Below are positions 2,860 through 60,190 of a stretch of DNA of 63,300 nucleotides, piece by piece; within the stretch, counting starts at the first letter, position 1, and the number at the start of each line of letters is the position of its first letter. Origin of the DNA: Firmicutes bacterium UBA2598. Lineage in GTDB: Bacteria > Bacillota > PH28-bin88. Made by a program: the position numbers and the translations under genes. The DNA lies in assembly GCA_002339345.1 (NCBI GenBank), contig DDKM01000032.1, positions 79,259 through 142,558 on the forward strand. The letters are read 5' to 3'. Below the pieces are notes generated by a model. It saw only the letters and a list, made by a program, of their open reading frames with translations. It did no database searches and was not told where the DNA came from.

Positions 2860-2934
2860 TGGCTGGGGCGGCTGGATTCGAACCAACACATGGCGGATCC
2901 AAAGTCCGCTGCCTTACCGTTTGGCTACGCCCCA
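2860..2934 (-). tRNA. tRNA-Gln (anticodon UUG)
   Basis: Minus-strand cloverleaf with acceptor TGGGGCG/CGCCCCA. Anticodon stem GCGGA/TCCGC carries loop CTTTGGA. T-arm is GGTTCGAATCC and CCA is encoded. Confidence 0.93.
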
Positions 2935-2948
2935 ATAACGGGAAAAAT

Positions 2949-3026
2949 TGGGGTGGATGATGGGACTTGAACCCACGACCCCCAGAGCCACAATCTGGTG
3001 CTCTAGCCGACTGAGCTACACCCACC
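2949..3026 (-). tRNA. tRNA-His (anticodon GUG)
   Basis: Acceptor GTGGGTG/CATCCAC with the extra 5' G(-1) typical of tRNA-His. Anticodon stem CCAGA/TCTGG carries loop TTGTGGC. T-arm is GGTTCAAGTCC and CCA is encoded. Confidence 0.93.
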
Positions 3027-3043
3027 GCGCAACGGCAACATTT

Positions 3044-3072
3044 ATATTAACACTCTCATCTATAGATGTCAA
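3044..3072 (-). promoter_or_regulatory. Sigma-A-type promoter for tRNA-His/tRNA-Gln
   Basis: Minus strand reads TTGACA (3072-3067), a 17-nt spacer, then TAATAT (3049-3044), about 18 nt upstream of the tRNA-His 5' end. Confidence 0.55.
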
Positions 3073-3230
3073 GCAATATACCATTGGACCAGAGCTGAAG
3101 CATGAAAAATACCCGCAGGCCGCTATTTTTTCACACCTTCACAAGAAAATAGCGCGAAAGGTTATTTCGTTCCAACCCTGTAAGCCCTGATATGCCTGCG
3201 TTTTAAAAGTCGTGCGTCAGCTCTGCCCCT

Positions 3231-3258
3231 AAAAACAAAAAACCGCAGGCCATGCGGT
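3231..3258 (-). terminator. Intrinsic terminator after tRNA-Arg
   Basis: Minus strand reads ACCGCA-TGGCC-TGCGGT followed by TTTTTTGTTTTT. It separates the Gly/Arg pair from the His/Gln pair. Confidence 0.5.
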
Positions 3259-3272
3259 ATCAGAAACTGCTA

Positions 3273-3349
3273 TGGTGCGCCTGAAGGGATTCGAACCCCT
3301 GACCCACGGATTAGAAGTCCGTTGCTCTATCCAACTGAGCTACAGGCGC
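3273..3349 (-). tRNA. tRNA-Arg (anticodon UCU)
   Basis: Acceptor GCGCCTG/CAGGCGC. Anticodon stem ACGGA/TCCGT carries loop CTTCTAA. T-arm is GGTTCGAATCC and CCA is encoded. Confidence 0.93.
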
Positions 3350-3365
3350 CTGCTGCCTAAAAAAA

Positions 3366-3439
3366 TGGAGCGGGTGATGGGAATCGAACCCACGCGACTA
3401 GCTTGGAAGGCTAGGGCTCTACCATTGAGCTACACCCGC
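3366..3439 (-). tRNA. tRNA-Gly (anticodon UCC)
   Basis: Acceptor GCGGGTG/CACCCGC. Anticodon stem CTAGC/GCTAG carries loop CTTCCAA. T-arm is GGTTCGATTCC and CCA is encoded. Confidence 0.93.
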
Positions 3440-3514: not shown

Positions 3515-4003
3515 TCAAAAGTTATTTATCACCATATGACGGAGATGGTACCCATCAGGGCTAACGGTCAACCAGCCATAGGATCCTTGTTGATGATCCC
3601 GTGGACGGCAAGGGCTGCCAGGATTAAATAGGTGCAGGTTTTCCATCTTCTGGTCCAGGGGCACGTGGGTATGGCCAAAGATGCACACATCCACTCCCAG
3701 CTGTTTTCCACGCCGGACTATCTCCGACAAACCGGCCTTTACCCCTAAACGATGTCCATGGGTAATCAGGATTTTTATGCCAGATAGGTCCACCACCAGC
3801 TCATCCGGCCCCCGCCGGCCCCAGTCACAGTTACCGGCTACACCATAGACCTGGCAGGGGTAATTTTTTTGAATCCACACACTGTCTGCAAAATGATCGC
3901 CAGCGTGTATAACGGCATCCGGTACTCCCCCCTGCTTGATGACCGCCTCCAGGATACGGCGATCACCGTGGGTATCGCTCACCACCAGCACCCTTGGCAT
4001 CAT
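3515..4003 (-). CDS. YfcE/MJ0936-family metallophosphoesterase (B. subtilis YsnB-like)
   Basis: Shows the metallophosphoesterase motifs VVSDTHG, HAGD, GNCD, THGH and GHTH. It sits downstream of rph-rdgB, as in Bacillus. Confidence 0.85.
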   Translation of the reverse strand: MMPRVLVVSDTHGDRRILEAVIKQGGVPDAVIHAGDHFADSVWIQKNYPCQVYGVAGNCDWGRRGPDELVVDLSGIKILITHGHRLGVKAGLSEIVRRGKQLGVDVCIFGHTHVPLDQKMENLHLFNPGSPCRPRDHQQGSYGWLTVSPDGYHLRHMVINNF

Positions 4004-4033
4004 CCATCACCCCATGCAGATACTCCGATCTCC

Positions 4034-4636
4034 TCAAACACCAACCAGCCTGCAGATTATTTCCGCCGCCCGGCGGAAAGCCTGGGCCCGGTGGCTGATG
4101 GTGTTTTTCACCTCCGGCGCCAGTTCAGCCATGGTACACCCGAATGCAGGAAGGTAAAAAAGGGGATCATACCCAAACCCATTGATCCCCCTCGGTTCAT
4201 ACCCGATCTCGCCCTCACAGGTACCGTCTACCAGATAACACTGTCCCCCAGGCGTTACCACGGCGATGGTACAGCGAAAACGGGCAGTCCGCCGGCCCGG
4301 TGTCACATCCGCCATCAACTGCAATAGTTTTTCATTGTTTCGACGGTCGTCCTTGGGTTCACCGGCAAAACGGGCGGACAACACACCGGGTGCCCCACCG
4401 AGGGCATCAACCTCCAGGCCGGAGTCGTCTGCAATGGCCAGCAAACCTGTGCGGTTTGCCGTATCAACGGCCTTCAGGCTGGCGTTTTCCGCAAAAGTCC
4501 GGCCCGTTTCCTCCACCTCCGGTAAGGCGGGAAAGTCTGCCAGGCTCAGCATTTCCACCGGCAAGGGCGCCAATAGGGCCCTGAATTCCTTCAGCTTACC
4601 CATATTGCGGGTCGCCAGGACTATCTGTTTATTCAT
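4034..4636 (-). CDS. rdgB: Non-canonical purine NTP pyrophosphatase (XTP/dITP diphosphatase, RdgB/HAM1 family)
   Basis: Shows LATRNxGKxxE, FGYDPLF and the ISHR motif. It overlaps the rph stop by 4 nt. Confidence 0.9.
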
Positions 4637-5376
4637 GGTACAATAATTCCTTCCGCCACCGGCCCAAGGGCCTGTTTTTGCATTTCCACCAAGTGTTTTA
4701 CGGCTGTAGCGGCCAGATCAAGCATGGCCTCCAGTTCCGCCCGGGTAAAGGGATAATCCTCGGCAGTACCTTGTACCTCTACCAGCTTCCCGCTGGCGGT
4801 CATCACCACATTCATATCCACCTGGGCACGGGCATCCTCATCATAACATAAATCCACCATTAACTCATCCTGTACCTTACCCACACTGATGGCTGCCAGG
4901 TAGTCCACCACCGGCAGGCGGGGCAAATGACCCTCATCAACCAAGTGCTGCATGGCATCCACCATGGCCACAAAACTACCGGTAATGGCGGTGGTGCGGG
5001 TACCCCCATCCGCCTGGATGACATCACAATCCAAGGTAATGGTCCTTTCCCCCAAAATGGACAGATCCACCACCGAGCGTAAGGAACGCCCGATCAACCG
5101 CTGGATTTCGTGGGTGCGTCCCCCGATCTTGCCCTTTGCCGCTTCCCTCACCGTGCGAACCTGGGTAGCCCGGGGAAGCATGGCGTATTCCGCGGTAATC
5201 CATCCCCTGCCGGAACCCTTGGCAAAGGGAGGCACCTTTTCCTCCACAGTTGCCGTGCAAATTACCCTGGTCTGTCCTGCCTCCACCAGCACCGATCCCT
5301 CGGCATGTTTAATATAACCACGGGTGATCCGGATCGGTCTGACCTCACCGACTGTACGGCCATCTATGCGTGCCAC
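4633..5376 (-). CDS. rph: Ribonuclease PH
   Basis: Shows RIDGR...[30 protein letters not shown] and [18 protein letters not shown], with full-length collinearity to RNase PH. Confidence 0.95.
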
Positions 5377-5416: not shown

Positions 5417-6427
5417 TTAACCGGTACCGGTCAAGTTTTTCAAACCGTCAATACCGCTGCCGGACCCCCCAGGCAATTGGTGGGCAGACCCCACCAGACC
5501 TACCATGATGTAAAGTTGCTGCACGGGATCCCACCGAAATTCGGGCATCAACCGGAAATTCTCCACCTCACCCGTCCGCTTTAGGTGAATGCGGGGTCCG
5601 GTGCAGTTGACCAATAGGTCACCAATGCGGATGTGATTCTCATCCACGTAGGCAATTTCCACATCATTGCGGATGTAGTCCTTTACCCGGTCTTCCACCT
5701 CCACCAGGTCGATGGCTGGTATGGCATCAAACTCCAATATAAATCCATGTTTGATGTCCCCATGCACCCGCGGTTTGGGGATCCCCATACCGTCCAGCAC
5801 CAATCCCGTCAAATCCTCAGCGGTATGGGCCATTTTGCGGTAACGAATGGAGTTAAAGACAATCCCGGCAATATCCTGTGGATCGGGGCCGAAAAGTCCC
5901 GGCCTGGTTACGATGACCTCTTCGCCAACCCCGATCAGCACCTCCGGTTTAATGTCCAGGTAGGGATGTAGCAGTTCATAATGTTCCACCACCACCCGCC
6001 GCCCCTTCATGATGGCCTGGCGGGCAGCTTCCGCCAGTTCACCCGGTTGGGTAAAGGCGGTCTCGAAGCGCACATCCAGGTGGTAGGTGTGATGGCGAAA
6101 GAACCCTCGCTGGGCATGGTCCAGCAGGGGCAGTGGTCTGATGTTTACATTATTGTCATCATTGGTCAGCTCCAGTCCCGGAAACATGCCACTGATAAGC
6201 AGGGATTTGCCGGCGCCGGCATCACCAATTAACCCGATTAAGCGATCTTCTGCACTGAGGTAGCGCTGGGCCACATTGGCCCCCAAGTGGATCAGCCGCT
6301 TTTTTCCCCTGGGGGCAAAATACACGGCGTGCATCAAGTATTCATGGATCCCGATCACACCCAATCTTCCTACCCCCATTCCCACCGGCCAAAAACCGGT
6401 ACCTGCCACGCCCACTGCTATGGCCAA
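5417..6427 (-). CDS. Uncharacterised P-loop NTPase-like protein
   Basis: 336-aa ORF with a Walker-A-like GDAGAGKS. I do not recognise any other family signature. The start (TTG at 6427) is uncertain and internal ATGs are possible. Confidence 0.55.
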
Positions 6428-6462: not shown

Positions 6463-7209
6463 TTAGATTCTGTATGCCAAGTTCTCTTCAGCCAGCTCAG
6501 GTTCAATACCTGCCGCTACCGCCTCCTGCCGCAGGGCATCCAGGTCATAGCCAGGCCAAAAATGGGTCAACACCAGCCGTTGCACACCAGCCTGCACCGC
6601 TAGCTCACCAGCCTGGCGTGCCAGCACGTGACCTGTTTTGAGGGCATATTCGGCATCCCTTTCCATGATACTGGCTTCACAAAGCAGCAAATCCGCCTTG
6701 GCTGCCAGCAAAGGCAGTCCATCGAACCATCCGGTATCCCCAGTGTATACCAACCGGCGCCCGCCAGCGGTTACCGCCACACCGATGGTAGGAAAGCCGT
6801 GGAGTGTACGGAATGGCTCAATGACAAAGGGCCCGATGGTAATAGGGGGGTAACTGCATCCGGGCTCATCCGCCAGGGCGCCTACCTCTTTAACCCGAAA
6901 GGCCCGTACCATCTGCTGCAACTGGCTGACTGCCTCTCCCGGCGGCACCACCAACGGCAGTGGTTCCGCCTCCCGGCCTTCCCGCTGCTGCCCCTCCCAG
7001 GCGTGGCGCAAAGCGATTAAATCACCCCAATGGTCAGCATGAAAATGGCTGATCACTACACCGTGCAAATCGCGCCATGGCAAACGCGACATCACCCCGT
7101 GGCCACAATCCAGCAGCAGACTGGCTCCGGCATGGGTGACCAGATAGCCGGAACACGCCCCGCCCATCCGGGGGTAGGGAGCCCAACAGCCCAATACTTT
7201 TAGTTCCAT
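6463..7209 (-). CDS. MBL-fold metallo-hydrolase (RNase Z / YhfI-like)
   Basis: Shows the HFHADHWGD zinc motif and a later TGDTG...H pattern. Start moved to ATG 7209 (MELKVLG), which has a GGGGAGG SD; the track start at 7236 has none. Confidence 0.8.
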   Translation of the reverse strand: MELKVLGCWAPYPRMGGACSGYLVTHAGASLLLDCGHGVMSRLPWRDLHGVVISHFHADHWGDLIALRHAWEGQQREGREAEPLPLVVPPGEAVSQLQQMVRAFRVKEVGALADEPGCSYPPITIGPFVIEPFRTLHGFPTIGVAVTAGGRRLVYTGDTGWFDGLPLLAAKADLLLCEASIMERDAEYALKTGHVLARQAGELAVQAGVQRLVLTHFWPGYDLDALRQEAVAAGIEPELAEENLAYRI

Positions 7210-7236
7210 CCCCAAAACCTCCCCTTCAAACTCCAT

Positions 7237-8001
7237 TCACTGAGCGGCTTCTGCCAGACAGCAACCGATGGCCCCGTTAAACTGGGGATGGGGAGGGATT
7301 ACCACCTCCACCTCCAGTTCCCTGGCCAGGATCTCCCCGATGGCCTTGTTATAGGCTACACCGCCGGTAAAAACCAGGATCGGACTGTACAGTTTAAGCA
7401 GCATAGGCAGTACCCGACGGAAAATGGTATAGTTCACACCTGCCGCCAGGCTGGCAATGGGATGTCCCTCGATGATACGTCCCACCAATTCCGATTCGCC
7501 GAAGACAGCACAGGTTGAACTCAATTCCACCGGGTCATGGGTATGTCTCCCCATTTCTGCCAGGGAAACGCCCAGTACCGCCGCCATGTTTTCCACATAC
7601 CGGCCGGAGCTGGCGGCACATCGATCATTGGTGATAAAATCCGCCATCTTCCCGTTCCGGACCAGGATGACCTTACTGTCTTGGCCTCCCAAATCAAGGA
7701 GGGTATAATCGGTAAGACCGGTCTGGAAATTGGCCCCCAGCAGGTGGGCACGGATTTCCGGTATGTTGACCGCTCCCTCCACCTGGATAGTAAGGCGACC
7801 GTACCCTGTGGACACCACCCTGTCCAAACTTGGCAGGCCAAGGGCTGCAAAGTCGATGACCAGCCTTTCCCCCGCTTTCCGCCCAAAACGCCGGTAAAAT
7901 TCGATCGTGTCATATTTCCTGGTTTCTATTAGGTTGCCGTCCTCCATCAGGGCCAGCTTCACCCACCGGCTGCCCAAATCCATACCGGCCACCAGTGCCA
8001 C
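7237..8001 (-). CDS. BcrAD/BadFG-family ATPase (2-hydroxyacyl-CoA dehydratase activase / 'archerase'-type)
   Basis: ASKHA fold signatures GMDLGSRWVKLAL and LLDLGGQDSKVI. The Cys pair (NDRCAASSG ... STCAVF) is typical of the bridging [4Fe-4S] cluster in HgdC-like activators. Length is 254 aa. Confidence 0.85.
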   Translation of the reverse strand: MALVAGMDLGSRWVKLALMEDGNLIETRKYDTIEFYRRFGRKAGERLVIDFAALGLPSLDRVVSTGYGRLTIQVEGAVNIPEIRAHLLGANFQTGLTDYTLLDLGGQDSKVILVRNGKMADFITNDRCAASSGRYVENMAAVLGVSLAEMGRHTHDPVELSSTCAVFGESELVGRIIEGHPIASLAAGVNYTIFRRVLPMLLKLYSPILVFTGGVAYNKAIGEILARELEVEVVIPPHPQFNGAIGCCLAEAAQ

Positions 8002-8061
8002 CGGTCCATCTCCCTTTCCTAGCCCACCGGGTAATTGCCCAAATTATGTCAACGGATCCGC

Positions 8062-9042
8062 CTATCGCAGCATTTCCACAAAGGCATCGATGCGCATGCG
8101 GCTGCGGGCATCCAGCCCGCCCGGGCGGTCAACCTCCAGGAAAAGCATCGGTACATTGAGCTTTTCCCTGAAAATGATATCTTCAATTTGCCGGAAACAA
8201 AAACTCTGGGTATAGTGGATAATTCCCTGGATCCTACGGCGCTCAATTTCCTGTTTGATATCCAGAATGCGGTCAAACACAGGATAGGGATAGGTATACA
8301 ACCGGTATTGCTCCACCAGATCACCGGTCTGAAAGGGCATGGAAAACTGCCGCTGGACCTCATTATACACCACCCTGGCCCCAATATCCTCCAGGTACCG
8401 GTACAGATCCGGCACAATGGGCGGAACTCCAATGTACCCCAAGCGAACCTGTTCACGGAAGGCCTCCCGCCGGGATAACCCCGCCAGGAAGTCCTCCGCC
8501 TCCCGGGCAAAGGCCTCCGGGTCACCGTTAAAATCACTGCAACTGACCTGGTAAAGATGGTTTTCCTGCCCACTAACCAGGTTGGTTTCATATGTATGGC
8601 GGTCAATCTCATGAACCAGCGCCCTTACCCGGTCCAACCTGTCCTTGGTTTCCATTACCGCTGGCCAGTCCACTTGAAAATAGCCCATCAACTTCTCAAT
8701 GGACAGTTTAAGCAGGTCCCGATCCCGGTCATAGGGAAAGGCAAAGGGAATAATCCGGATTTCCTTCAGGACCAAGGTTTCCATCAAAGCATGGGTGTTG
8801 CTGCAATCCCCCTGGGTAACGGCAATAACCTCCCGGATTTCGGGAGTTTCCAACACGGTGCCGTAAATGCCCTTAATCCAACCGCAGAGGTTACGGGGAT
8901 AACCGGCCATTTCCGCCGCTTCCACCATCTTCCCCGGGTTCTGGCCGGTGATAAAGACATTGTTCAAATCCACCGGCACACAACCGGCGGCAAAGACCAC
9001 CTCCACCGGTACAGTGGTGGTGATGCCGATTTTCCTCACCAT
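8062..9042 (-). CDS. 2-hydroxyacyl-CoA dehydratase family protein (HgdB/BcrC-like, single subunit)
   Basis: 326-aa ORF with the family's N-terminal KIGITTTVPVEVVFAAG block and conserved Cys residues (GDCSN, TQSFCFR). It lies 60 nt upstream of the activase. Confidence 0.75.
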   Translation of the reverse strand: MVRKIGITTTVPVEVVFAAGCVPVDLNNVFITGQNPGKMVEAAEMAGYPRNLCGWIKGIYGTVLETPEIREVIAVTQGDCSNTHALMETLVLKEIRIIPFAFPYDRDRDLLKLSIEKLMGYFQVDWPAVMETKDRLDRVRALVHEIDRHTYETNLVSGQENHLYQVSCSDFNGDPEAFAREAEDFLAGLSRREAFREQVRLGYIGVPPIVPDLYRYLEDIGARVVYNEVQRQFSMPFQTGDLVEQYRLYTYPYPVFDRILDIKQEIERRRIQGIIHYTQSFCFRQIEDIIFREKLNVPMLFLEVDRPGGLDARSRMRIDAFVEMLR

Positions 9043-9063
9043 GGGCAGAACCTCCCTTTTGGC

Positions 9064-10515
9064 TTACCGGCGTTGCCCCACCAGCATCCCTTTGCCTATC
9101 GCATAAAGGTCTTCCAGCACCATCTGGTAGGAGGGCTGGCGGCCCTCCCGCCGGCCCCTTGCCTGCATTTTTTCCCGGTGCAGTTCCAACAATTCTTCCG
9201 GGAGCGGTAAATTACCGGTTTCCAGCAGGCGGATGGCCCCTTGACAGTCCCTGGCGGGTAACACCCGGCCCTGGTTGTACCGGCTGGCCGCAAAGGGTAC
9301 ATCCAGAATCCCGAGGGCAAAGGCCTTTTCCACCCCTGCCGAAAGGTTTCCCTCCCCCAATTCCCATACCCGGTCTAGGATAGCCCGGGTTTCTGCCGCA
9401 ATTACAGCCATTTCCTCTTTCAGAGCGGGGAATTCGGGTAGGGGTTGATCCTTTACCATATTGATTACCTGCCGGGTGGCCATCAGCCCACTGGCAATGG
9501 CCTCCTTGTTGGGGCTTCCCGTTGCCTCAGTGGGTGTTTTGGTGATCACCCGGTGGGCACCTGCCAGCCCTGCCACCGCCGCTCCCCAGGCCAACACTCC
9601 GTACGCCTGGCTTTCCGCCTGGGGAAAACCGCCCATCCACTGGTAAAAAACCACGGTAACGGTAACTTCACTGCATCCCAGCCTGTTCAAGTACTCCCCC
9701 GCCAGGGGAGCTAAACAGCGCAATGCCGCCACATCCTGCACCAGGTTACCGCCCTGGCCGTATCCCAGGGAAAGATGGGTCACTCCTTGTTCCGCCGCCA
9801 GCAGCCCTTCCAGAATCGCAACACTATGGGACAGACATGGCGGGACCAGGGCCCCGGTTAGAGCTCCGCAGGTCTCCCGGTGCAGGGGTACACCGCCTTC
9901 CTCGGCATAGCGGCCCACCAGGCGATCGATATACCGCCAGCTGGCCAGGCTTTCCGACAGGGGCTTGTCCTTCAGATAGGGAAGATTGCTGGAAATACCA
10001 CCGCCCTCCAGACCTGTAAACCCGGCAGCCAGGGCTATCTCTGCCACCAGCCCGGGATCCGCCCCCATGTGGCGAACCTGTACCGGCAAACGGAGACCTT
10101 CCAGCAGTAAGCGGCAACGATCCAGACCATGGTTAAGCAGGGGAAAGCCCTGCAAACCAGCGGGGTCGATGTTCAAGTGGGATTCCACCTCCCGCCAGCG
10201 GCCAAGGCGAGTCAGGTTGTCAATGGTGGTAGGCAAGACATCCGCCAGACCGTCTTTTTGTATAAAGCGCAAAAAGGCGGCGTGCTCTTCCAGGAATGGC
10301 AGACCACCCCTTGGCTGTACCAGTGTACTGTTGTCCCGGGCCGCCTGGGCCATGGCCACCGCCAGGTTCCGGCGGGCAGGCAGTCCCTGCAGATAGTCAA
10401 AGGCTTCTGTTAAATCCGGCGCATGCATGCCGGCGGCGGCAAAAAGGGTTTTCCGCTGTCCATCCCAGTCCTCAACGGTTATTTTTGCTTTGCTGCTCAA
10501 TTTTCCTCTCCCCAA
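9064..10515 (-). CDS. Methylaspartate (glutamate) mutase E/epsilon-subunit homolog
   Basis: End-to-end collinear with clostridial GlmE as I remember it. Shared blocks are QPRGG, TIDNLTR, VRHMG, EGGGISSNLPY, CGALTGALVPP, VVFYQWMGGFPQ and C-terminal YAIGKGMLVG. An alternative TTG start at 10500 would give a TTGA overlap with the murI stop. Confidence 0.8.
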   Translation of the reverse strand: MGRGKLSSKAKITVEDWDGQRKTLFAAAGMHAPDLTEAFDYLQGLPARRNLAVAMAQAARDNSTLVQPRGGLPFLEEHAAFLRFIQKDGLADVLPTTIDNLTRLGRWREVESHLNIDPAGLQGFPLLNHGLDRCRLLLEGLRLPVQVRHMGADPGLVAEIALAAGFTGLEGGGISSNLPYLKDKPLSESLASWRYIDRLVGRYAEEGGVPLHRETCGALTGALVPPCLSHSVAILEGLLAAEQGVTHLSLGYGQGGNLVQDVAALRCLAPLAGEYLNRLGCSEVTVTVVFYQWMGGFPQAESQAYGVLAWGAAVAGLAGAHRVITKTPTEATGSPNKEAIASGLMATRQVINMVKDQPLPEFPALKEEMAVIAAETRAILDRVWELGEGNLSAGVEKAFALGILDVPFAASRYNQGRVLPARDCQGAIRLLETGNLPLPEELLELHREKMQARGRREGRQPSYQMVLEDLYAIGKGMLVGQRR

Positions 10516-11330
10516 TCCAATTCCACCTGCCGGACATCAGCCACCAGGGGATGGCTGCCCAGCAACCGCCGGCCCGCCAGGCGGAAGTTTTCCGCAGGAC
10601 CACTCACCAGGCAGGTATGGGAAGGTTCCGCCGACCCCTCTGCCATCACCTCCGTTTTCCCAAGCACCTCAGCCACCTCGTCAGCTGTAGCGGCCGCCGG
10701 ATCCACGAGGGACACCCGTTCACCGGTCATTTCCCTGATCAATGGAGCCATAAAGGGGTAATGGGTACAACCCAGAATGATGGTATCCACATCGGCCCAG
10801 AGAAGGGGTGCGAGATACCCGCTTATGGCTTGCCGGGCTGCCGGTGAGTCCACCTCGCCGGCTTCCACCAGGGGTACCAGCAGCGGGCAGGCCTGGGCAT
10901 AAACTTCCACACCGGGATTGCTGGATAGCAGGGACAGCCTGTGGGCATTGCTGCTAACGGTCACCTCCGTACCCAGCACCCCAATCCGCCCGTTACGAGT
11001 TTGGCGCAGGGCCTCCCTGACCCCCGGTTCAATGACACCGATCACTGGTAGGTTAAATCGCGCCACCAGTTCTGGCAGGGCCACAGCGGAAGTGGAATTG
11101 CAGGCATCCACAATCAGTTTTGCTCCCTGTGACACCAGAAATTCAACGATCCGGCAGGCAAAGGCCACCAGTTGACCGGCCGGCCTGGGCCCGTAGGGGA
11201 CATGAAGGGTGTCTGCGAAATAGAGAATCTTTTCCCCAGGCAACCGCAAGTTAATCTCCCGTGCCACCGTCAACCCGCCCACACCAGAATCAAAGACACC
11301 AATCGGCCGGGCTGTTTTCACAAAAACCAC
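10497..11330 (-). CDS. murI: Glutamate racemase
   Basis: Shows IGVFDSGVGGLTV, the catalytic Cys blocks DACNS and LGCTHYP, and a typical length of 277 aa. Confidence 0.92.
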   Translation of the reverse strand: MVFVKTARPIGVFDSGVGGLTVAREINLRLPGEKILYFADTLHVPYGPRPAGQLVAFACRIVEFLVSQGAKLIVDACNSTSAVALPELVARFNLPVIGVIEPGVREALRQTRNGRIGVLGTEVTVSSNAHRLSLLSSNPGVEVYAQACPLLVPLVEAGEVDSPAARQAISGYLAPLLWADVDTIILGCTHYPFMAPLIREMTGERVSLVDPAAATADEVAEVLGKTEVMAEGSAEPSHTCLVSGPAENFRLAGRRLLGSHPLVADVRQVELDWGEEN

Positions 11331-11393: not shown

Positions 11394-11915
11394 CTATTTA
11401 CCTTTCCGCACATTAAAGATGCCACCACGGGTAGTCCTGGTGTCCAGAACGGTTATGAAGGCCTGGCAGTCCCGTGAGTTGACCTGTTGCATAAACCGTT
11501 CTTTATCCCGGCGGTTAATGATGGCCTGGATGATCATGTGCTCCCCTTCACGGCCCTGGCCGTACCATACCGTCACCCCAAAACCTTCCGCCCGCAGGGC
11601 TTCCACCATCTCTAACCCATCGCAACGGGGAATCACCTGGATGGTCATGTATCCAAGGGCTAGACGCTCCTCCACCAATCCGCCGACAAAATTGCCCGTG
11701 GCAAACCCCAGGGAATAGATCACCAGACTTAGGGGATCCGTCAAACGGTCCAAAACGTATTTGATGGTAATCACATAAATACTGACCTCAAAGAAACCGA
11801 TGCATGCCGCTACCAGGCGCCGGCCACGCACCAGCAGCAACACCCGCAGGGTTTGCATTGTTACATCCACAACCCGGGCCAAAAAAATTAAAAGGTATCC
11901 AAGGAATAGTTCCAC
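11394..11915 (-). CDS. UPF0316/DUF2179-family membrane protein
   Basis: The N-terminus has three TM helices (LLIFLARVVDVTMQTLRVLLLVRGRR). The C-terminus is a soluble DUF2179-like domain. Confidence 0.7.
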   Translation of the reverse strand: MELFLGYLLIFLARVVDVTMQTLRVLLLVRGRRLVAACIGFFEVSIYVITIKYVLDRLTDPLSLVIYSLGFATGNFVGGLVEERLALGYMTIQVIPRCDGLEMVEALRAEGFGVTVWYGQGREGEHMIIQAIINRRDKERFMQQVNSRDCQAFITVLDTRTTRGGIFNVRKGK

Positions 11916-12053: not shown

Positions 12054-13862
12054 CTAGTGTTCTGCCTTTATGGCAAAGTATTTGGCCAGCCCCTCGGCAA
12101 TGCCCAGGGCGGCCTGGGCCCGGAATACGGGATCCCCCAGTAACGCTTCTTCTTCCGGGTTAGATATAAAAGCGGTTTCCGCCAGAATTGACGGCATGGT
12201 GGTGTTCCGTAACACCGAAAAACTGGCCTCAAAAATACCGGCATCCCGCCGCCCCATGGCCTGCACCATTTCCATTTGCACCAGGCTTGCCAACAGCTGC
12301 CGGTCCGCCCGCTGCCCCTCCAGGGGGCTACCCACAGGCGCATAGTAATAGGTAGTGGTACCGTTCAGCAGGCGGCTGGTGGAGGCGTTGGCATGTACCG
12401 AAACAAAGACATCCGCTCCGGCGTCGTTGGCAATGGCTGCCCGGCCTTCCAGGGTAAGGGTGGTATCCCCCACCCGGGTCAGGATGACCGTGGCCCCGCG
12501 GCTGATCAAAATATCCCTTAGCCGTAGGGAAATGTCCATTACCACATCCCGTTCATACAGCCCGTTCTTGCCCACCGCCCCCGGATCCGACCAGTTGCCA
12601 GGCTGAATGCTACCATGGCCGGGATCGATGACAATTATTTTGCCGGCCAGGGGATCCGCCCTATTTACCGGATCCCTGCCATGTCCATCACCCCTGGCAG
12701 CGGTGGAGAGGGTACGAATGCTCACCAGCCACCCGGCAATCCACCCGGTCTTGCCTTCCGCCATTTGAACCTGGTACCAGTCCCCCTGTTCACCGATTAC
12801 CGGCAGGAACTGGCCACTGCGGACCTGGGTCACCAATGGGAAAGAGATATCCGGACCACTGCGGACATTGACCACACTGCTATTGACCACCGCCAACCTT
12901 AGAGGTTCTCCATGTTCGGACGGGGTTTCCTTTTCCGGCAGGACAGGTGGCACCGCCGGAGGGTTGGCGGTCACCACCTCCGTGACCAGCCAACCGGCCA
13001 CCCAGCCCTGTTTGCCGTCTTCCAAACGGACCTCCAGCCAGTCCCCTTTGGCCCCGATCACAGTCATGGCCGTACCTTTGGGCAATAACGCCAGCCGGGT
13101 AAAGGTGGTTGCCGGTCCGGCACGTAGATTCACGTTTTCCGTTACCTCAACCCGTTTCACTTCCGGTCCGGTGGTGACACCATCCGGTACGCCACCCGGG
13201 TCCGGTGCTGCTACCAGCAGGTCCTGCACCAGCCAGCCAGCCACCCATCCCCCCTTGCCGCTCTCCGTCCGAACCTCCAGCCATTCACCAGACTGGGCGA
13301 CCACCGTCAGACGGGTGTTTTTAGGCAATGTTTCAATGCGCGGGAAACTGGTACCAGCCCCCTGACGCAGGTTAACATTGTCACTGGTAAGGACAACCCT
13401 TTCCACCCGCGGCTGGTTCCAGATATCCACGGTGTTGGTGGCACCATCCCAAATCACCCGGGCGCCAAGGTTCTCCATTACAAAACGGAGGGGTACCATG
13501 GTGCGGTTGTTGACAATCACCGGTTCGGTGTCCATGGTAACCACCTGACCGCCCACAGTGGCCTGGCGGGAGTTGATGGTCAACCCCACTACCTGGTCTC
13601 CGCGGCTGATGCGCACAGTCCTGGCCTGCTCATTCCAGTCCACGACATTACCGAGGGATTCCCCCACCAGGCGGATGGGAACCATGGTCCGGTTGTTGCT
13701 ATCAATATAGGCAGGGGTATCCCCCACCAGTATACTGCCATTTAGGCGCAGCTGGACCAGCGGCCTGCCCTCCAGGGCCATCGCCCCGGGCATCACCGCA
13801 CCCGTCAACAGGAACACCGATAACAATATTGCTGTTGTCTTCTGTCTGAGTTTGCCTGTCAC
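12054..13862 (-). CDS. N-acetylmuramoyl-L-alanine amidase with copper-amine-oxidase-like stalk and three SH3b repeats
   Basis: The C-terminus is Amidase_3-like (IVIDPGHG...SVHANA). Three near-identical VNLR.GP...G.WL.V....G..GWVAGWLV modules are present, plus stalk repeats (TMVPIRL/ TMVPLRF). Start reset to GTG 13862, which has a GGGGGAGGA SD 5 nt upstream and yields a signal peptide. Confidence 0.85.
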   Translation of the reverse strand: MTGKLRQKTTAILLSVFLLTGAVMPGAMALEGRPLVQLRLNGSILVGDTPAYIDSNNRTMVPIRLVGESLGNVVDWNEQARTVRISRGDQVVGLTINSRQATVGGQVVTMDTEPVIVNNRTMVPLRFVMENLGARVIWDGATNTVDIWNQPRVERVVLTSDNVNLRQGAGTSFPRIETLPKNTRLTVVAQSGEWLEVRTESGKGGWVAGWLVQDLLVAAPDPGGVPDGVTTGPEVKRVEVTENVNLRAGPATTFTRLALLPKGTAMTVIGAKGDWLEVRLEDGKQGWVAGWLVTEVVTANPPAVPPVLPEKETPSEHGEPLRLAVVNSSVVNVRSGPDISFPLVTQVRSGQFLPVIGEQGDWYQVQMAEGKTGWIAGWLVSIRTLSTAARGDGHGRDPVNRADPLAGKIIVIDPGHGSIQPGNWSDPGAVGKNGLYERDVVMDISLRLRDILISRGATVILTRVGDTTLTLEGRAAIANDAGADVFVSVHANASTSRLLNGTTTYYYAPVGSPLEGQRADRQLLASLVQMEMVQAMGRRDAGIFEASFSVLRNTTMPSILAETAFISNPEEEALLGDPVFRAQAALGIAEGLAKYFAIKAEH

Positions 13863-14038
13863 CGTTGTCCTCCCCCGGGCAAAGTGTTGGTGACAGTATT
13901 CGATTCCGACCAACATAATTCCTGCGCAAGGGGAGGTAATTGGCATTTTGAAATTTTACCCATCAAAAAGCCCGACCCCCACGGCCGGGCTGGCATAACT
14001 GTACCAGCTGTTCCCAGCTGGTTCCGGGCCCCTTCACT

Positions 14039-14665
14039 TTAGTTGGCCCGCTTGATCAGGCTTTCATTGCGCCCCATCACCGTCGATACATCCACATGCC
14101 CGGCTATGGTCTTGACATACTGTCCCTCTACCAGAAACTGCACTCGATCTACAGTAGGAAACTTGGTCAAGGTGTTGACGATGGAATAGACCGTCAGCTT
14201 CTCTGCCGTACTGCCGCCGGGATGATTTAGCATCAATTGCTTATTAAAATCCACAATAGCAAGTCCATCGGGCTTGATATTGATATCCTTCAATACCACG
14301 CCGGCGGGAATGGTGGGCAAAAGTCCGGATCCCGGCATCGGGCCGTTGATCAGTTCTTGGATGGTGGCCCTGGCCAGTCCCACCACCTTGGGAATGTTTC
14401 GTTCCTCCGGCACCAGGTAACTCCCTGTGCTATCAGCGAAATAAAGGGTTACCTTGATGGTTTCACCGGAAAACCCCTGGTGGGATACAGGCAACTGGTT
14501 TTCCGGCGGAGGAACTTCCACCACTGGTGTGCTGTCCTTGCCAGCAAATCTGTCCTTTAGAGAGGTAAGGGACTTGGTCACCCCGCACCCGCTGGTTGAC
14601 AGCGCTACCCCTAGCAGCAACGCCACGGCCAGTAATAGAGATATGTTCTTCCTGCCCCGCATCAT
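14039..14665 (-). CDS. gerM: Spore germination lipoprotein GerM
   Basis: Two GerMN-type repeats (VTLYFADSTGSYLVPEER...; VDFN...VYSIVNTLTKFPTVDRVQFLVEG). Lipoprotein signal is LSTSGC. Start reset to the ATGATG at 14665/14662, behind an AAGGAGG SD. Confidence 0.85.
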   Translation of the reverse strand: MMRGRKNISLLLAVALLLGVALSTSGCGVTKSLTSLKDRFAGKDSTPVVEVPPPENQLPVSHQGFSGETIKVTLYFADSTGSYLVPEERNIPKVVGLARATIQELINGPMPGSGLLPTIPAGVVLKDINIKPDGLAIVDFNKQLMLNHPGGSTAEKLTVYSIVNTLTKFPTVDRVQFLVEGQYVKTIAGHVDVSTVMGRNESLIKRAN

Positions 14666-14892
14666 TAATCCTCCTTTACCTTTTTTTGTCTGGTACATCC
14701 TATGGCCATGCCGTAGGTTTATTACAAAAATTATGGCAGGGGTCTTCGGGCAAAATGAGCGGTTCAACGGCAAGGATTCGGATGCTAACGGAATTTTATG
14801 CCACTTAAAGGAATCTGCGCACAATTGTCAAAATAATTAAATAGGACAAAATAGTTACTCCAGCGGCAAGCTGCAAAAAAAGGAGTTTCGCC

Positions 14893-23015: not shown

Positions 23016-24434
23016 TCAGGCGGGCTCTCCACCGGCGCGGACGGGCCGGCGGGAATTGCGTTTCCCGTCATATGAAAACACTGTGCCCTTCCCTTCCACC
23101 ACCGTTTCCAGGTGTACCGGGCGGCCCCAAAGCAAGTAGACATGGGGCATGGTCTTTTCCAGATACGGTAGATCCAATTCCACACCCTCGTACCGGTGCT
23201 GCAGGTACAACTCTCCCCGGTGGTTGTAATCACCATCCACCACCACGATGGATGGAAATCCGCCGTTAATCCTGGCCTCCACCAGTCCCTCGCGCACCTT
23301 CTCCCAGTTCTTTTCCGTCACCACCCAATCATGGCCCATTTTTTGATACAGGTAAAGATCCATTTCCTCCACCAGTTCCCTGGTCAGGTAGTTACGCAAG
23401 AAAGACACATCATTTTCGCAGGCCCTGACGGTAAAGATCTTGTCCCGACCTTCTCCCCCCGGACGGCGGAACCGCCGGCGTTCCTCCTCCGAAGGGTTAT
23501 CCCACCGTTTTTCAATATCCTCAAATATTTTAACTCCCAACAAGTAAGGATTGATAGCGGTGCGAGATGGTACAATGACTGAGGCATGCATTTTGGCAAA
23601 TTCCAGCGCTTCCCCTTCCGGCAGGTCCAGTTCCCTGATAATGCGGGTGTGCCAGTAGGTAGCCCACCCTTCATTCATGATCTTGGTCTCCAACTGAGGC
23701 CAGAAATAAAGCATCTCTTCTCTGACCATGGCGATGACGTCCCGCTGCCAGTCCTCCAGGTCCCGGCTATGGGTCATGATGAAATACAGCAGATCCTTTT
23801 CCGGTTGGGCAGGCACCTTCCGGGCTGGAACGGGCGGAGAAGGGGCGGGCGGTTTGCCCAAGTTGAACAGATCATCATAGGGCGTCTCCTCCGGTTCAGC
23901 CTGTTCCTGCACAGGTATTCCCTTGACCTGGGGACGGGGTTCGATGTGTTCCTGGATGGACAGGACGGCATCCAAAAAAATTTCCACTTCCCGCCGGCCG
24001 TACTTGTACTCGTATTCCCTGATCCGCCTGGCGTGGACCGACATGCTTTCCAGCATCTGCCGGGAAGTTTTTTTAAAATGGGCATTATTTTTGAAAAAGT
24101 CACTGTGGGCCAGCACATGGGCGATAACCAGCTTTTGCTGGATGAGGGTATTTCCTTCCAATAAAAAGGCATAGCAGGGGTCAGAGTTGATGACCAGTTC
24201 GTAAATACGGCTCAAATTGTAATCATATTGGGTTTTCATGCGGTGAAAGGCCTTACCGAAGGACCAGTGGGCAAAACGGGCGGGCATACCGTAGGCGCCA
24301 AAGGTATAAATAATATCCGCCGGGCATATTTCGAAACGCATATCATAAAAATCCAGGCCGAAGCGGCGGGCGATGCCGATAATTTCTTCCACCGCTTTTT
24401 CCAAAACCTGCAGTTCCTGGTTATGGTGCATCAT
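23016..24434 (-). CDS. spoVR: Stage V sporulation protein R family
   Basis: Full-length SpoVR signature ([23 protein letters not shown]). It is the third gene of the prkA-yhbH-spoVR set. Confidence 0.92.
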
Positions 24435-24437
24435 GGG

Positions 24438-25604
24438 TTAATGTTCCTCCCGCTTGAAAAAGGCCCGCAGGGCCGGATAAACTTCCGACTTATCCTTGAT
24501 GCTGACCGGCACGAAACGGGGATCTTTGATTTTCTTGTAGGTGCTCATCAGGGTGCTGCTGCGGTAATAGGGGTTGACAATCTCGCCGTATCCGAAAATG
24601 TTGCAGACTTCCAGAAGTTCGTTCACCAGTTTCACGCAAAGATCATTGTCGGAAGGCAGGTTGTCGCCATCGGAGAAATGAAAGGGATAAATGTTGTAAT
24701 CAAGGGGGTTGTACCGCTCCGCAATCATTTCCAGGGCCAGTTGGTACACCGATGAGCACTTGGTGCCGCCGCTTTCACCTTTGGTGAAAAACTCCTCCTC
24801 AGTAACCTCCTTGGCCTTGGTATGATGAGCCAGGAAAACAATTTGCACCTGCTGGTATTTGGTCCGCAAGAACCGAACCATCCAGAAGAAAAAGCTGCGG
24901 GCAATATACTTTTCAAAGGTGCCCATGGAACCGGAGGTGTCCATCATGGCAATGACCACCGCACTGGCCTCGTGTTTCGGCACTTCCTCCCATGTTTTAT
25001 ACCGCAAGTCCTCAGGTTTGATGCCGTGCAGGCCGGGATTGCCCGCCAGGGCGTTGCGCTTGATGGTTTCCAGGATGGTCCGCTTTTTGTCAATGTTGCC
25101 CGTCAAGCCGTGTTTGCGGACATCGTTAAAACGGGGGGAAGTGGCGGAAACCTTTTGCTTGCGGCGGTCCTGCAGGTTGGGCAGTTCCAAATCCTCGAAT
25201 ATCATTTCCGCCAGTTCCTCCAGGGTGACTTCCGTTTCGTAATAGTCCACCCCGGGCTGGTCCCCGGCCCCCTTCCCCTTGCCGCTGCCGGCGAAAGCCT
25301 GATCACTGCCGATCACGTCCCCCTGTTTGGAGTTCCCTTTACCCTGCCCGCCGTGCTTTTGTTTCTGGAAGTTGTAACGAAAACGGTATTCCTCCAGGGA
25401 GCGGATGGGAACCTTGATCACCTTCCGGTCATCGGACATGATAATACTTTCTTCACTGATGATGTCTGCCAGGTTTTGCTTGATGGCCTCCCGCACCTTT
25501 TCCTGGTGGCGCTGCTGGTCCATCTGCCCCCGCCGGTACAGGGACCAATCTTCCCTGGTGATTAAAAAACTGCCGTCCACAGAACATCCCCCCAGGATTT
25601 CCAA
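24438..25604 (-). CDS. yhbH: YhbH/YeaH (DUF444) sporulation protein
   Basis: DUF444 pattern with a C-terminal vWA-like MDTSGSM motif. It lies 3 nt from spoVR. Confidence 0.9.
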
Positions 25605-25621
25605 TTAATGGCCCGAGGACA

Positions 25622-27514
25622 TTACCGGTTTAACAGGCTGCCGGTGTATTTGAGCAGTTCGTTGGCACACACCGGGCAGTAGCCGTGTTCGGAAATCAGG
25701 CGGTCAATGACCGCGTTCATTCTCTTGAGCTGTTCCGGGTCGGGTGTACGGGTGGAGGTGGTGATTTTCACCACGTCCCGCAGGTCGGCAAACAACTTTT
25801 TCTCGATGGCCTCCCGCAGCCTCTCATGGGAATTGTAATCAAACTTCTTGCCCTGCCGGGCGTAGCTGGACAGGCGGATAAGGATCTCCTCCCGGAAAGC
25901 CTTTTTGGCATTTTCCGTTACTCCAATTTGTTCCTCAATGGAACGCATGAGCTTTTCATCGGGATCCATTTCCTCATCGGTGATGGGATCCCTGACCTTC
26001 ACGCCATTGCAATAGGCCTCCACATTGTCCAGGTAGTTTTCAAAAAGGGTGCGGGCAGATTCCTCGTAGGAGTACACAAAGGCCCGCTGAACTTCCTTTT
26101 TGGCCGTTTCATCGTACTCCTGCCGGGCAATGGCTAGGAAGTTACCCAACCTGTCCTTCTCTTCCTTGGTAATGGAAGGATGCTGGTCCAGCCCGTCCTT
26201 CAATGCCCGAAGGATATCCAGGGCGTTGATACACCGGGTGTCCCCGGTAATCAGGGCACTGGAAATGCGGTTGATGACATACCTGGGGTCAACTCCGTTC
26301 ATGCCCTCCTGCTCCGCCTCCGCCATCAGTTCTGCCACGTCCTTTTGCTTGAACCCCTCTACGTCCTCGCCGTCATACAGCTTCATCTTTTTGACCAGGT
26401 CCATCCCTTGTTTTTTGGATTCCTTCAGCCTGGACAGAACGGAAAAAATACTGGCCGCCCACAGGCTATAGGGCGCAAGGTGCACATTGATGGCACTCTG
26501 GCGGATCATCTTTTCGTAAATGCGGACTTCCTGGCTGACTTTAAGGTTATAGGGGATGGGCATCACGATAATTCGCGACCGCAAGGCCTCATTTTTGGGG
26601 TTGGCGATAAATACGCGGTATTCCGCTTCGTTGGTGTGGGCAACGATCATCTCATCGGCGCTGATAAGGGCAAAGCGCCCCGCCTTAAAGTTGCCTTCCT
26701 GGGAAAGGCTCAGCAAGTTGTATAGAAACTTCTCGTCACACTTTAACATCTCCTGAAACTCCATCAGCCCCCGGTTGGCCTTGTTCAGTTCACCGTCAAA
26801 CCGGTAAGCCCGGGGATCGGATTCCGAGCCGAACTCGGAAATGGTGGAAAAATCGATGGAGCCGGTGAGATCTGCAATGTCCTGGGATTTGGGATCGGAA
26901 GGACTGAAGGTGCCGATACCCAGCCTGTTTTCCTCAGAAAATACCACCCGGTGAACCCGCACATCTTCCACCCGGCCGTGATATACTTCCTCCAGCATTA
27001 ACTTACAGGAAGGGCACAGGTTTCCTTCCACATAAATGCCGTAGTTTTTCTCCATCTCAGCCCTTAAATCATGGGGAATCAGGTGCAGTGGTTCTTCCTG
27101 CATGGGGCAGTTTTTAATGGCATATACGGCCCCTGACGGGGTACGGGTATACCGTTCCAACCCCCTCTTTAACATGGTGACGATGGTGGATTTCCCCCCA
27201 CTGACCGGGCCCATTAACAAGAGGATACGTTTACGAACATCCAAGCGCTTAGCCGCTGAGTGGATATACTCCTCAACCAACCGTTCCAGGGTCCGGTCAA
27301 GGCCGAAGATCTCCCCGGCAAAAAAGTTATAGCGCTTGATACCATTTACTTCTTCCACTCCTTCGCTCACAATCATGTCATAAATGCGGGCATGGGCCAG
27401 CCGGGCTATGGAAGGGTTTTTGATCACCATCTCCAGGTATTCAACAAAACTGCCCTCCCACTGGAGCTGTTTTTCCTGCTGGCGATGCTCCTCCAATCGC
27501 TTCAGGATATCCAT
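25622..27514 (-). CDS. prkA: PrkA-family serine protein kinase (AAA-type)
   Basis: Length 630 aa, Walker A LLMGPVSGGKST, and PrkA N- and C-domain collinearity. Confidence 0.95.
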   Translation of the reverse strand: MDILKRLEEHRQQEKQLQWEGSFVEYLEMVIKNPSIARLAHARIYDMIVSEGVEEVNGIKRYNFFAGEIFGLDRTLERLVEEYIHSAAKRLDVRKRILLLMGPVSGGKSTIVTMLKRGLERYTRTPSGAVYAIKNCPMQEEPLHLIPHDLRAEMEKNYGIYVEGNLCPSCKLMLEEVYHGRVEDVRVHRVVFSEENRLGIGTFSPSDPKSQDIADLTGSIDFSTISEFGSESDPRAYRFDGELNKANRGLMEFQEMLKCDEKFLYNLLSLSQEGNFKAGRFALISADEMIVAHTNEAEYRVFIANPKNEALRSRIIVMPIPYNLKVSQEVRIYEKMIRQSAINVHLAPYSLWAASIFSVLSRLKESKKQGMDLVKKMKLYDGEDVEGFKQKDVAELMAEAEQEGMNGVDPRYVINRISSALITGDTRCINALDILRALKDGLDQHPSITKEEKDRLGNFLAIARQEYDETAKKEVQRAFVYSYEESARTLFENYLDNVEAYCNGVKVRDPITDEEMDPDEKLMRSIEEQIGVTENAKKAFREEILIRLSSYARQGKKFDYNSHERLREAIEKKLFADLRDVVKITTSTRTPDPEQLKRMNAVIDRLISEHGYCPVCANELLKYTGSLLNR

Positions 27515-58398: not shown

Positions 58399-58600
58399 TC
58401 CGGATGACTCCGGTGGGAGAGTTCCTGAAACAAACCAGGACGCCGAAGGAGTAACCCTGGGTGTTGGTGGCACGCGGGGGAAACTCTCAGGTACCCGAAC
58501 CGCCGGCAGACGGGTCTCTGGAGAGTTCCTCCAGCGGGAGGACACCCAAGGGGATCCGGCCCAGGGGGCCGGTTCAATCTCTCAGGTTCGAGGACAGAGG
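58399..58600 (+). promoter_or_regulatory. Tandem glycine riboswitch (two aptamers)
   Basis: Aptamer 1 reads GGGAGAG...GACGCCGAAGGAGTAA...CTCTCAGGTACCCGAAC. Aptamer 2 reads CTCTGGAGAG...ACACCCAAGGGGAT...CTCTCAGGTTCGAGGACAG. It lies upstream of gcvT, the classic context. Confidence 0.85.
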
Positions 58601-59796: not shown

Positions 59797-59798
59797 GG

Positions 59799-60188
59799 AT
59801 GCACATACCGCAGGAATTGAAGTACAGCCGGGAACACGAATGGGTGCAGGTTAATGGGAACACTTGCCGGGTGGGAATCACCGACTATGCCCAGCAGTCC
59901 CTGGGGGATGTGGTGTTTGTGGAACTGCCGGAGATCGGCAGGGTACTGGAACGGGGGGAAGCCTTCGGGGTGGTGGAATCCGTCAAAGCCGCCTCAGACT
60001 GCTACTCACCGTTAGCCGGGACGGTCACCGCAGTGAACCAGGAACTGCTGGATACGCCCCAGTTGATCAACGAAGATCCCTACGGCCGGGGCTGGATCAT
60101 GGAGGTTGAAATCGCTAATCCCGACCAACTGGAAGGGCTGCTGACCGCCGTCCAATATGAGGAGCTGGTCCGAGAGGGAGGTGCATAG
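59799..60188 (+). CDS. gcvH: Glycine cleavage system H protein
   Basis: Lipoyl-lysine motif VESVKAASD and typical length of 129 aa. Confidence 0.95.
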   Translation: MHIPQELKYSREHEWVQVNGNTCRVGITDYAQQSLGDVVFVELPEIGRVLERGEAFGVVESVKAASDCYSPLAGTVTAVNQELLDTPQLINEDPYGRGWIMEVEIANPDQLEGLLTAVQYEELVREGGA

Positions 60189-60190
60189 GG

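Follow-up and report, generated by a model that had tools for sequence, protein, structure and literature searches.

The question raised by this locus is how a homologue of the E subunit of glutamate mutase (GlmE) can stand without its B12-binding partner GlmS, directly before the genes of a 2-hydroxyacyl-CoA-dehydratase-like (HGD-D family) Fe-S protein and of an ATP-dependent activase (archerase). The three genes, here called glmE, hgdD and act, lie in a stretch of 63.3 kb from the metagenome-assembled genome (MAG) of Firmicutes bacterium UBA2598 (contig DDKM01000032.1, positions 79,259 to 142,558); this whole stretch is referred to as the window. They share one strand, with gaps of 21 nt (glmE-hgdD) and 60 nt (hgdD-act) and a good ribosome-binding site at each, as described in an earlier note made from the sequence alone (Table 1). 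That note proposed that the activase and the Fe-S protein replace adenosylcobalamin as the radical source of the GlmE-like barrel. Comparison with related genomes points to another answer: the window probably represents a reduced methylaspartate-pathway island, in which the HGD-D/activase pair and the GlmE-like protein would be two independent units.

Identity of the Three Proteins and the Missing Partners

The GlmE-like protein matches PF06368 with 552 bits (cut-off 26.6) and TIGR01503 with 528 bits (equivalog cut-off 390). Its residues 11-481 align to residues 7-481 of clostridial GlmE (6h9e_B, 1cb7_B; E-value 1.7e-145, about 50% identity), and the AlphaFold2 model, with a mean predicted local distance difference test score (pLDDT) of 90.5, is a TIM barrel. 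The closest homologues are only 55-58% identical. The HGD-D protein (PF06050, 123 bits) and the activase (TIGR00241, 184 bits versus a cut-off of 125) were recovered by their family profiles as well, and the three family assignments of the earlier note stand. With the GlmE/GlmS systems of Clostridium cochlearium and C. tetanomorphum (1CCW, 1I9C, 6H9E), the window protein shares the collinearity, the TIM barrel and seven key residues. It differs from them by the absence of glmS, glmL and the methylaspartase gene (mal) from the 63 kb, by a serine in place of Tyr177 and by an approximately twofold faster evolution. Judged by its sequence, it is a member of the MutE family, but one lacking GlmS, GlmL/Mal and Tyr177.

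The partners of glutamate fermentation were searched for in several ways. With the proteins of Desulforamulus ruminis and Desulfitobacterium hafniense as queries, tblastn revealed no glmS, glmL, mal or mesaconase gene in the 63.3 kb (best E-value 0.018, i.e., noise), and profiles derived from 77 GlmS, 77 GlmL and 73 Mal sequences gave no match in the window under hmmsearch --max. As a control, the GlmS profile detected the B12 subunit of a methylmalonyl-CoA mutase in another locus (L089) at 3e-11. Pfam scans of 40 window proteins found no B12-binding domain (PF02310). The observation that no B12 subunit, GlmL or methylaspartase is visible in the 63 kb is thus upheld. Nor does the window contain any relevant RNA element, such as a cobalamin riboswitch. 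A remnant of a glmS/glmL deletion upstream of glmE is ruled out by the overlap of murI with glmE, and a mal remnant between glmE and hgdD by the 21-nt spacer, which is too short. A QueG-type epoxyqueuosine reductase with DUF1730, Fer4_16 and HEAT domains is encoded at 30800-31912 (-). QueG is a cobalamin enzyme; since it is encoded, the source organism probably has access to B12.

Gene Order in Related Genomes

GlmE loci (80) were collected from species-representative genomes and annotated by tblastn, the counts being limited to loci with sufficient flanking sequence. In 73/75 loci, glmS lies upstream of glmE, and mal is present in 64/67. It is followed by hgdD in 36 of the 67, and in 33 of those 36 by the activase gene too. 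For example, D. ruminis (CP002780, 949-967 kb) and D. hafniense (KB900390) carry glmS-glmL-glmE-mal-hgdD-act in the same syntenic slot, and their flanks are those of the window (gerM, amidase, murI on one side; MBL, unk336, rph, rdgB and phosphoesterase on the other). Downstream of act, either MBL-unk336-rph-rdgB or a mesaconase-type fumA/fumB pair is found. In these islands, glmE is surrounded by glmS, glmL and mal, and GlmE is changed at 0-2 invariant positions, whereas all three genes are missing from the window. As hgdD and act accompany complete B12-dependent clusters in dozens of genomes, they cannot substitute for B12 there.

The reverse survey, a metagenome scan seeded by the HGD-D alignment, provided 35 loci in which the sequence extends 5.5 kb or more upstream of hgdD. 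Of these, 31 are entirely devoid of glm genes, and the other four carry the glm cassette between murI and hgdD. The usual order without glm genes is gerM-murI-hgdD-act-(MBL)-rph-rdgB, in which the stop codon of murI frequently abuts or overlaps the start of hgdD (L095, L102, L146, L151, L169). In relatives, murI is found directly upstream of either glmS or hgdD. The order gerM-DUF2179-murI is syntenic in L005, L031 and L092, and hgdD-act-MBL-unk336-rph is kept in D. ruminis, L013, L017, L062, L096, L104 and L111. The HGD-D/activase module sits between murI and rph-rdgB, with no glutamate mutase, in L095, L102, L146, L151, L167, L169 and about 25 more loci; in L098, L099, L146 and L167, it is followed by an Fe-S hydro-lyase of the fumA/fumB type.

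These gene orders suggest a backbone gerM-DUF2179-murI-hgdD-act-(MBL)-unk336-rph-rdgB, common in Firmicutes of the Desulfotomaculia/Peptococcaceae type. The complete, B12-dependent glmS-glmL-glmE-mal cassette would be a variable insert, present between murI and hgdD in many lineages. In the simplest history, glmS and glmL and, separately, mal were deleted at the base of the small clade to which the window belongs, and glmE was kept. The pair hgdD/act would have been lost later everywhere in this clade except in the window lineage. Thus, glmE would adjoin hgdD-act because mal was deleted. Misassembly was rejected as a source of the arrangement, as the identical protein in the same arrangement is found on three contigs and the junctions carry overlaps and ribosome-binding sites. 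The earlier note had named a lack of conservation of the triad in other genomes among the points that would speak against its proposal. The triad is not conserved: among the approximately 170 loci examined, the GlmS-less order glmE-hgdD-act occurs only in the window.

A Clade of Orphan GlmE Proteins

A GlmE without neighbouring glmS, referred to here as an orphan, is not restricted to the window. The window sequence and those of loci L005, L007, L008 and L031 cluster as a single clade with a long branch in a neighbour-joining tree of GlmE, nested among HGD-D-bearing clusters of the Desulfotomaculia type. Long-branch attraction was rejected as the source of this clade: an independent rph+rdgB tree regroups the window, L005, L008 and L031 (L007 is without these genes), with the complete-cluster locus L092 as the sister. 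GlmE of L092 deviates at only two near-invariant positions. Furthermore, a profile built from the orphans and searched against 5.8 billion proteins recovered only five clusters at 851-944 bits, with canonical GlmE reaching at most 759.

No glmS was found within the 10-21 kb around every other orphan GlmE, and none of the five other orphan lineages carries hgdD or act. The gene order is gerM-DUF2179-murI-glmE-unk336-rph in L031 and L008, which are of the same species, and murI-glmE-MBL-unk336-rph in L005. In L007 and L172 (the locus of protein P0241), an unrelated GntR-phn operon comes after gerM-(DUF2179)-glmE. The orphan condition has been maintained throughout a clade in which rph is only ~72% identical.

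GlmE of L005 and of L007 are 86% identical, with 0.95 synonymous substitutions per site (dS) and a ratio of nonsynonymous to synonymous substitutions (dN/dS) of 0.08; canonical genes show 0.03-0.10. On the basis of this sister pair, orphan GlmE is taken to be not a pseudogene but a protein under purifying selection. Between the window and L031, dN of GlmE is 0.36 with a saturated dS, and the dN ratio of GlmE to rph is 1.8, versus ~0.8 for canonical pairs.

Residue Conservation in the GlmE-Like Protein

A canonical set of 69 GlmE sequences was defined by adjacent glmS, glmL and mal, with the PDB protein added; 189 of its columns are at least 97% conserved (residue numbers are those of the PDB). 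Canonical GlmE deviates at 0-4 of these positions. The window protein differs at 52, and the other orphans at 23 (L031 and L008), 47 (L005), 48 (P0241) and 53 (L007). High counts are found exactly in loci without glmS, glmL and mal. Some changes of the window protein fall at positions intact even in the other orphans: Trp24 is deleted, and G27M, Q195R, F216C and H291Y are specific to it. A four-residue deletion lies within the conserved loop 113-116.

Despite these changes, the window protein retains Arg66, Arg100, Arg149, Glu171, Tyr181, Lys326 and Glu330, and the first five are conserved in all six orphan sequences. In the clostridial structures 1CCW and 1I9C, the three arginines make up the substrate-binding arginine claw, with Glu171 as the acid/base residue and Tyr181 in the tyrosine role. 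The chance that all five would survive in three independent sublineages is ~0.02, a rough estimate from the overall loss rates. Because such a retention is improbable, ligand binding by orphan GlmE seems to be under selection. The protein would thus be a selected relic with its dicarboxylate/amino-acid pocket kept, and its ligand is probably still glutamate or a related dicarboxylic acid with four or five carbons (C4/C5).

All 69/69 canonical sequences have Tyr177, which lies in the EGGGISYNIPY block. It is serine in the window and A, A, V, S and V in the other orphans. The difference from clostridial GlmE given in the earlier note is therefore real (Y177S), and the change is systematic among the GlmS-less relatives in the clade of the window. 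Tyr177 is also replaced in an unrelated lone copy (L040, Ser) and in Desulforadius tongensis (Cys). The latter carries glmS-glmL-glmE-hgdD-act (L013:8159-13352) with mal missing; its GlmE deviates at 4/189 positions and the DxHxxG motif of its GlmS is intact, so this cluster may encode a B12-dependent mutase of altered specificity. The loss of Tyr177 thus comes early and tracks the loss of methylaspartase, in the orphan clade, L040 and D. tongensis, and not the loss of B12; it therefore points to a changed reaction or substrate. This marks Tyr177 as a likely specificity determinant or switch.

In glutamate mutase, Glu330 makes contact with the adenosyl group (PMC4413051). The window protein, L031 and L007 retain this glutamate, but L005 has Asp and P0241 has Ala in its place. 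Lys326 is replaced by Arg in L005, L007 and P0241, a sublineage in which adenosylcobalamin chemistry looks to have been abandoned. With Tyr177 gone and about a quarter of the invariant positions changed, the window protein would no longer be a canonical, methylaspartate-forming glutamate mutase and would have a modified role. Most likely, as in the sisters that lost Glu330 in addition to Tyr177, this role is independent of GlmS and B12. A lost GlmS/B12 interface cannot be read from the pattern of substitutions, and this approach was dropped: with strand positions taken from the AlphaFold2 model, no enrichment on the C-terminal catalytic face of the barrel was found for the window (odds ratio 1.0, p = 1), and L005 gave an odds ratio of 2.0 (p = 0.054).

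The orphan proteins are all annotated as "methylaspartate mutase subunit E"; glutamate fermentation deduced from glmE alone is wrong in these genomes. Literature searches returned nothing on a GlmS-less GlmE or on a murI-adjacent HGD-D module.

The HGD-D Protein and Its Activase

The model of the HGD-D protein (pLDDT 91.7) was compared with known structures by Foldseek. It resembles DCCP (6eno, TM-score 0.80) and HadC (3o3n_B, TM-score 0.81), as well as BzdO and MbdO, at ~20% sequence identity. Across 53 orthologues, Cys53, Cys80 and Cys282 do not vary, one further cysteine is near-invariant, and all 88/88 invariant positions of this 53-sequence alignment are retained in the window protein. 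In view of this conservation, the three cysteines would hold a [4Fe-4S] cluster. The activase is matched by 4eht_A (E-value 3e-38) and 1hux_A (2e-35), and the cysteines of its NDrCAA and SSTCaVF motifs line up with those that bind the cluster in HgdC and HadI. They presumably correspond to the cluster-bridging Cys127 and Cys166. The activase gene lies within 700 nt of hgdD in 44/61 loci.

With the HadBC/HgdAB dehydratases and their activators HadI/HgdC, the window pair shares the HGD-D fold, the three conserved cysteines and the activase, at E-values of 1e-35 to 1e-38. Those dehydratases, however, are alpha/beta pairs of ~375-480 residues, whereas a single gene for 326 residues is found in the window, as in all orthologous loci, with ~20% identity. 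The score against the HadC equivalog NF052456 is only 15.9 bits (cut-off 700), and no CoA-transferase or 2-hydroxyacid dehydrogenase gene is nearby, unlike in the HadBC/HgdAB systems. The best match in both sequence and fold is DCCP/DCCP-R (6ENO, 7YYL), with the same layout of one catalytic and one activase protein. The [8Fe-9S] cluster of DCCP, on the contrary, needs six cysteines; the window protein has 3-4 conserved ones, is ~95 residues shorter and reaches 39 bits against NF040772 (cut-off 350). Because it has one subunit, three to four cysteines and scores far under the equivalog cut-offs, its sequence places it in the BCR/HAD/DCCP superfamily but outside the characterised families.

By homology to HadBC-HadI and DCCP-DCCP-R, the pair can be regarded as an ATP-driven electron-injection enzyme. 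The archerase would hydrolyse ATP to drive the injection of a low-potential electron into the [4Fe-4S] cluster held by the three invariant cysteines of the catalytic subunit, which is probably homodimeric and HAD/DCCP-like; the cluster would then reduce or ketyl-activate a substrate. By analogy, such a two-component enzyme would be self-sufficient and have no need of GlmE. The two proteins of the window are 62% (HGD-D) and 60% (activase) identical to those of D. ruminis, compared to 63% for rph, so that no acceleration is seen.

In total, 6419 HGD-D homologues were found. The top 120 are ~325 residues long and 63-70% identical, and the top homologues span Calderihabitans, Desulfofundulus, Pelotomaculum, Thermincola and others, where they are named only generically. 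The ~325-residue HGD-D protein and its activase therefore represent an uncharacterised archerase system, large and highly conserved, which neighbours murI and rph in spore-forming anaerobes of the Firmicutes.

Alternative Explanations

Several observations weigh against a reduced island with two independent units. The window GlmE still has Lys326 and Glu330, and adenosylcobalamin chemistry is possible there. The even spread of the substitutions fits a general relaxation as well as a new function, and selection on the window lineage itself lacks a direct measure, dS being saturated against every relative. The absence of the partners was established on 63 kb of a MAG, and a GlmS, GlmL or Mal encoded in trans is possible. 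D. tongensis shows that a GlmE without Tyr177 coexists with intact glmS and glmL. Finally, the glm cassettes recur precisely between murI and hgdD, which could hint at a link between the HGD-D/activase pair and glutamate metabolism.

One alternative is that glmS (and glmL and mal) are encoded in another part of the genome and that GlmE of the window continues to assemble with GlmS and adenosylcobalamin, Y177S perhaps shifting its specificity. The score above the TIGR01503 equivalog cut-off, the retention of all substrate residues together with Lys326 and Glu330, the D. tongensis cluster (glmS and glmL retained beside a Y177C GlmE, no mal), the probable presence of cobalamin indicated by QueG and the incompleteness of the MAG are all in agreement with it. 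Yet glmS, directly upstream in 73/75 loci, is found neither in the 63 kb of the window nor in the 10-21 kb around the other orphans; 52/189 changes and an about twofold faster rate are not expected if the same complex persists; and sister orphans are without Glu330 and Lys326. We consider this explanation rather unlikely. Less probable still is that the window glmE is a decaying relic, intact by chance or through translational coupling to murI and the downstream genes. Its deviation count is among the highest and includes positions unchanged in the other orphans, the substitutions are evenly distributed over the fold, and the whole glm cassette has been lost in many relatives. The open reading frame of 483 codons is nevertheless intact, with a ribosome-binding site and the TTGA overlap, and the seven key residues are all kept, for which rough arithmetic at 72% retention per site gives a chance of ~0.1. 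Moreover, a dN of 0.36 against L031 is far below the saturated dS, the sister orphans have a dN/dS of 0.08, and the orphan state persists across the rph divergence of the clade.

The proposal of the earlier note is that the HGD-D protein and its activase serve the GlmE-type barrel as radical generator in place of adenosylcobalamin. A barrel supplied by this pair with a radical or with a low-potential electron would be a B12-independent carbon-skeleton mutase for glutamate or, in view of the murI overlap, for D-glutamate. If true, a rearrangement of the B12 type would be driven by a novel mechanism. The three genes adjoin in one apparent operon in a window without a B12 subunit, glmE of D. tongensis also directly precedes hgdD-act, and the window belongs to the only orphan lineage that kept hgdD and act. 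The surveys weigh strongly against the replacement of adenosylcobalamin, however: the pair stands beside complete B12 clusters in 33 or more genomes (33-36 of the 67 loci), occurs without GlmE in 31/35 loci and is missing from all five other orphan lineages. In addition, the HGD-D protein and the activase of the window are neither accelerated nor remodelled, the adjacency is explained by the deletion of mal, and we know of no archerase that acts on a TIM-barrel partner. This proposal must be regarded as very improbable, and the reduced island, with its two units working separately, is the reading that we retain.

A Second Group of GlmE Proteins without GlmS

GlmS-less GlmE barrels are not limited to this window; they occur in at least two genomic settings. 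A second type (P0080, P0102, P0027 and L040; loci L040, L089, L090 and L091) has no adjacent GlmS and deviates at 12-29/189 positions. The operon consists of a KOR-like 2-oxoacid:ferredoxin oxidoreductase (alpha, beta and gamma subunits), a HEAT-repeat protein of 460-472 residues and the GlmE-like protein, the stop codon of the HEAT-repeat gene overlapping the start of the GlmE-like one. In L040 (6078-13463), it continues with sucC-sucD-MFS. The neighbours in L089 are methylmalonyl-CoA mutase, its B12 subunit, an epimerase and a carboxyltransferase. With the window protein, this type shares A67G (P0080, P0102), Y98L (all five), P218A and T222A (P0080, P0102, P0027) and a change of H329 (all but P0027). 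It lies outside the clade of the window and in another genomic context; Tyr177 is mostly kept, with Y177S in L040 only.

Organization of the Operon and Other Features of the Window

The genes from DUF2179 through murI, glmE, hgdD, act, MBL, unk336, rph and rdgB to the phosphoesterase form what appears from their spacing to be one tight minus-strand operon (Table 1). The murI stop overlaps the TTG at 10500 (TTGA), which is preceded by GGAGAGG. On account of this overlap and ribosome-binding site, the true start of GlmE is likely this codon and not the TTG at 10515, 15 nt upstream; the protein would then have 478 residues. For unk336, no Pfam or NCBIfam family was found above threshold, with only a sub-threshold match to TsaE. 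Its homologues, 52-71% identical, lie upstream of rph in most related loci.

Table 1. Features of the glmE-hgdD-act locus, with positions in the window.
Feature	Position	Strand	Description or evidence
GlmE-like protein	9064-10515	-	483 aa; PF06368 + TIGR01503
HGD-D-family Fe-S protein, single-subunit (BCR/HAD/DCCP superfamily)	8062-9042	-	326 aa; PF06050
ATP-dependent activase (archerase, HgdC/HadI type)	7237-8001	-	254 aa; TIGR00241
murI (glutamate racemase)	10497-11330	-	TIGR00067, 229 bits
DUF5698/DUF2179 membrane protein, probable first gene of the operon	11394-11915	-	Pfam
MBL-fold hydrolase, abutting the activase stop	6463-7236	-	PF12706
unk336, conserved 336-aa protein upstream of rph	5417-6427	-	Walker-A-like GDAGAGKS
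rph, rdgB (Ham1) and YfcE-like phosphoesterase, distal end of the operon	3515-5376	-	Pfam
Promoter-like site upstream of the DUF2179 gene	11990-11961	-	Sequence
Terminator-like hairpin after the phosphoesterase and two tRNAs	3258-3242		
Four tRNA genes (Gly-TCC, Arg-TCT, His-GTG, Gln-TTG) directly downstream of the operon	2860-3439	-	

The source organism is a spore-forming Firmicute, as indicated by the prkA-yhbH(DUF444)-spoVR trio at 23016-27514 (-) and by gerM and an SH3-domain amidase at 12054-14824. Upstream of a gcvT-gcvH-gcvPA-gcvPB operon at 58702-62982 (+) lies a glycine riboswitch aptamer at 58404-58512 (+), scoring 61 bits. In the operon, gcvT and gcvPA were assigned by Pfam, and the open reading frames of 129 and 483 residues are taken as putative gcvH and gcvPB. 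Dihydrolipoyl dehydrogenase (56769-58151) is encoded divergently from this operon. The region 45386-49379 (-) encodes a GlcD-like FAD oxidase, a GlcF-like CCG/Fer4 protein and then a 469-residue protein without a Pfam match. An actin-like protein of the ALP/ParM type (ALP_N and MreB-like_C domains) is encoded at 49564-50625 (+) in a chromosomal context, beside an open reading frame of 121 residues.

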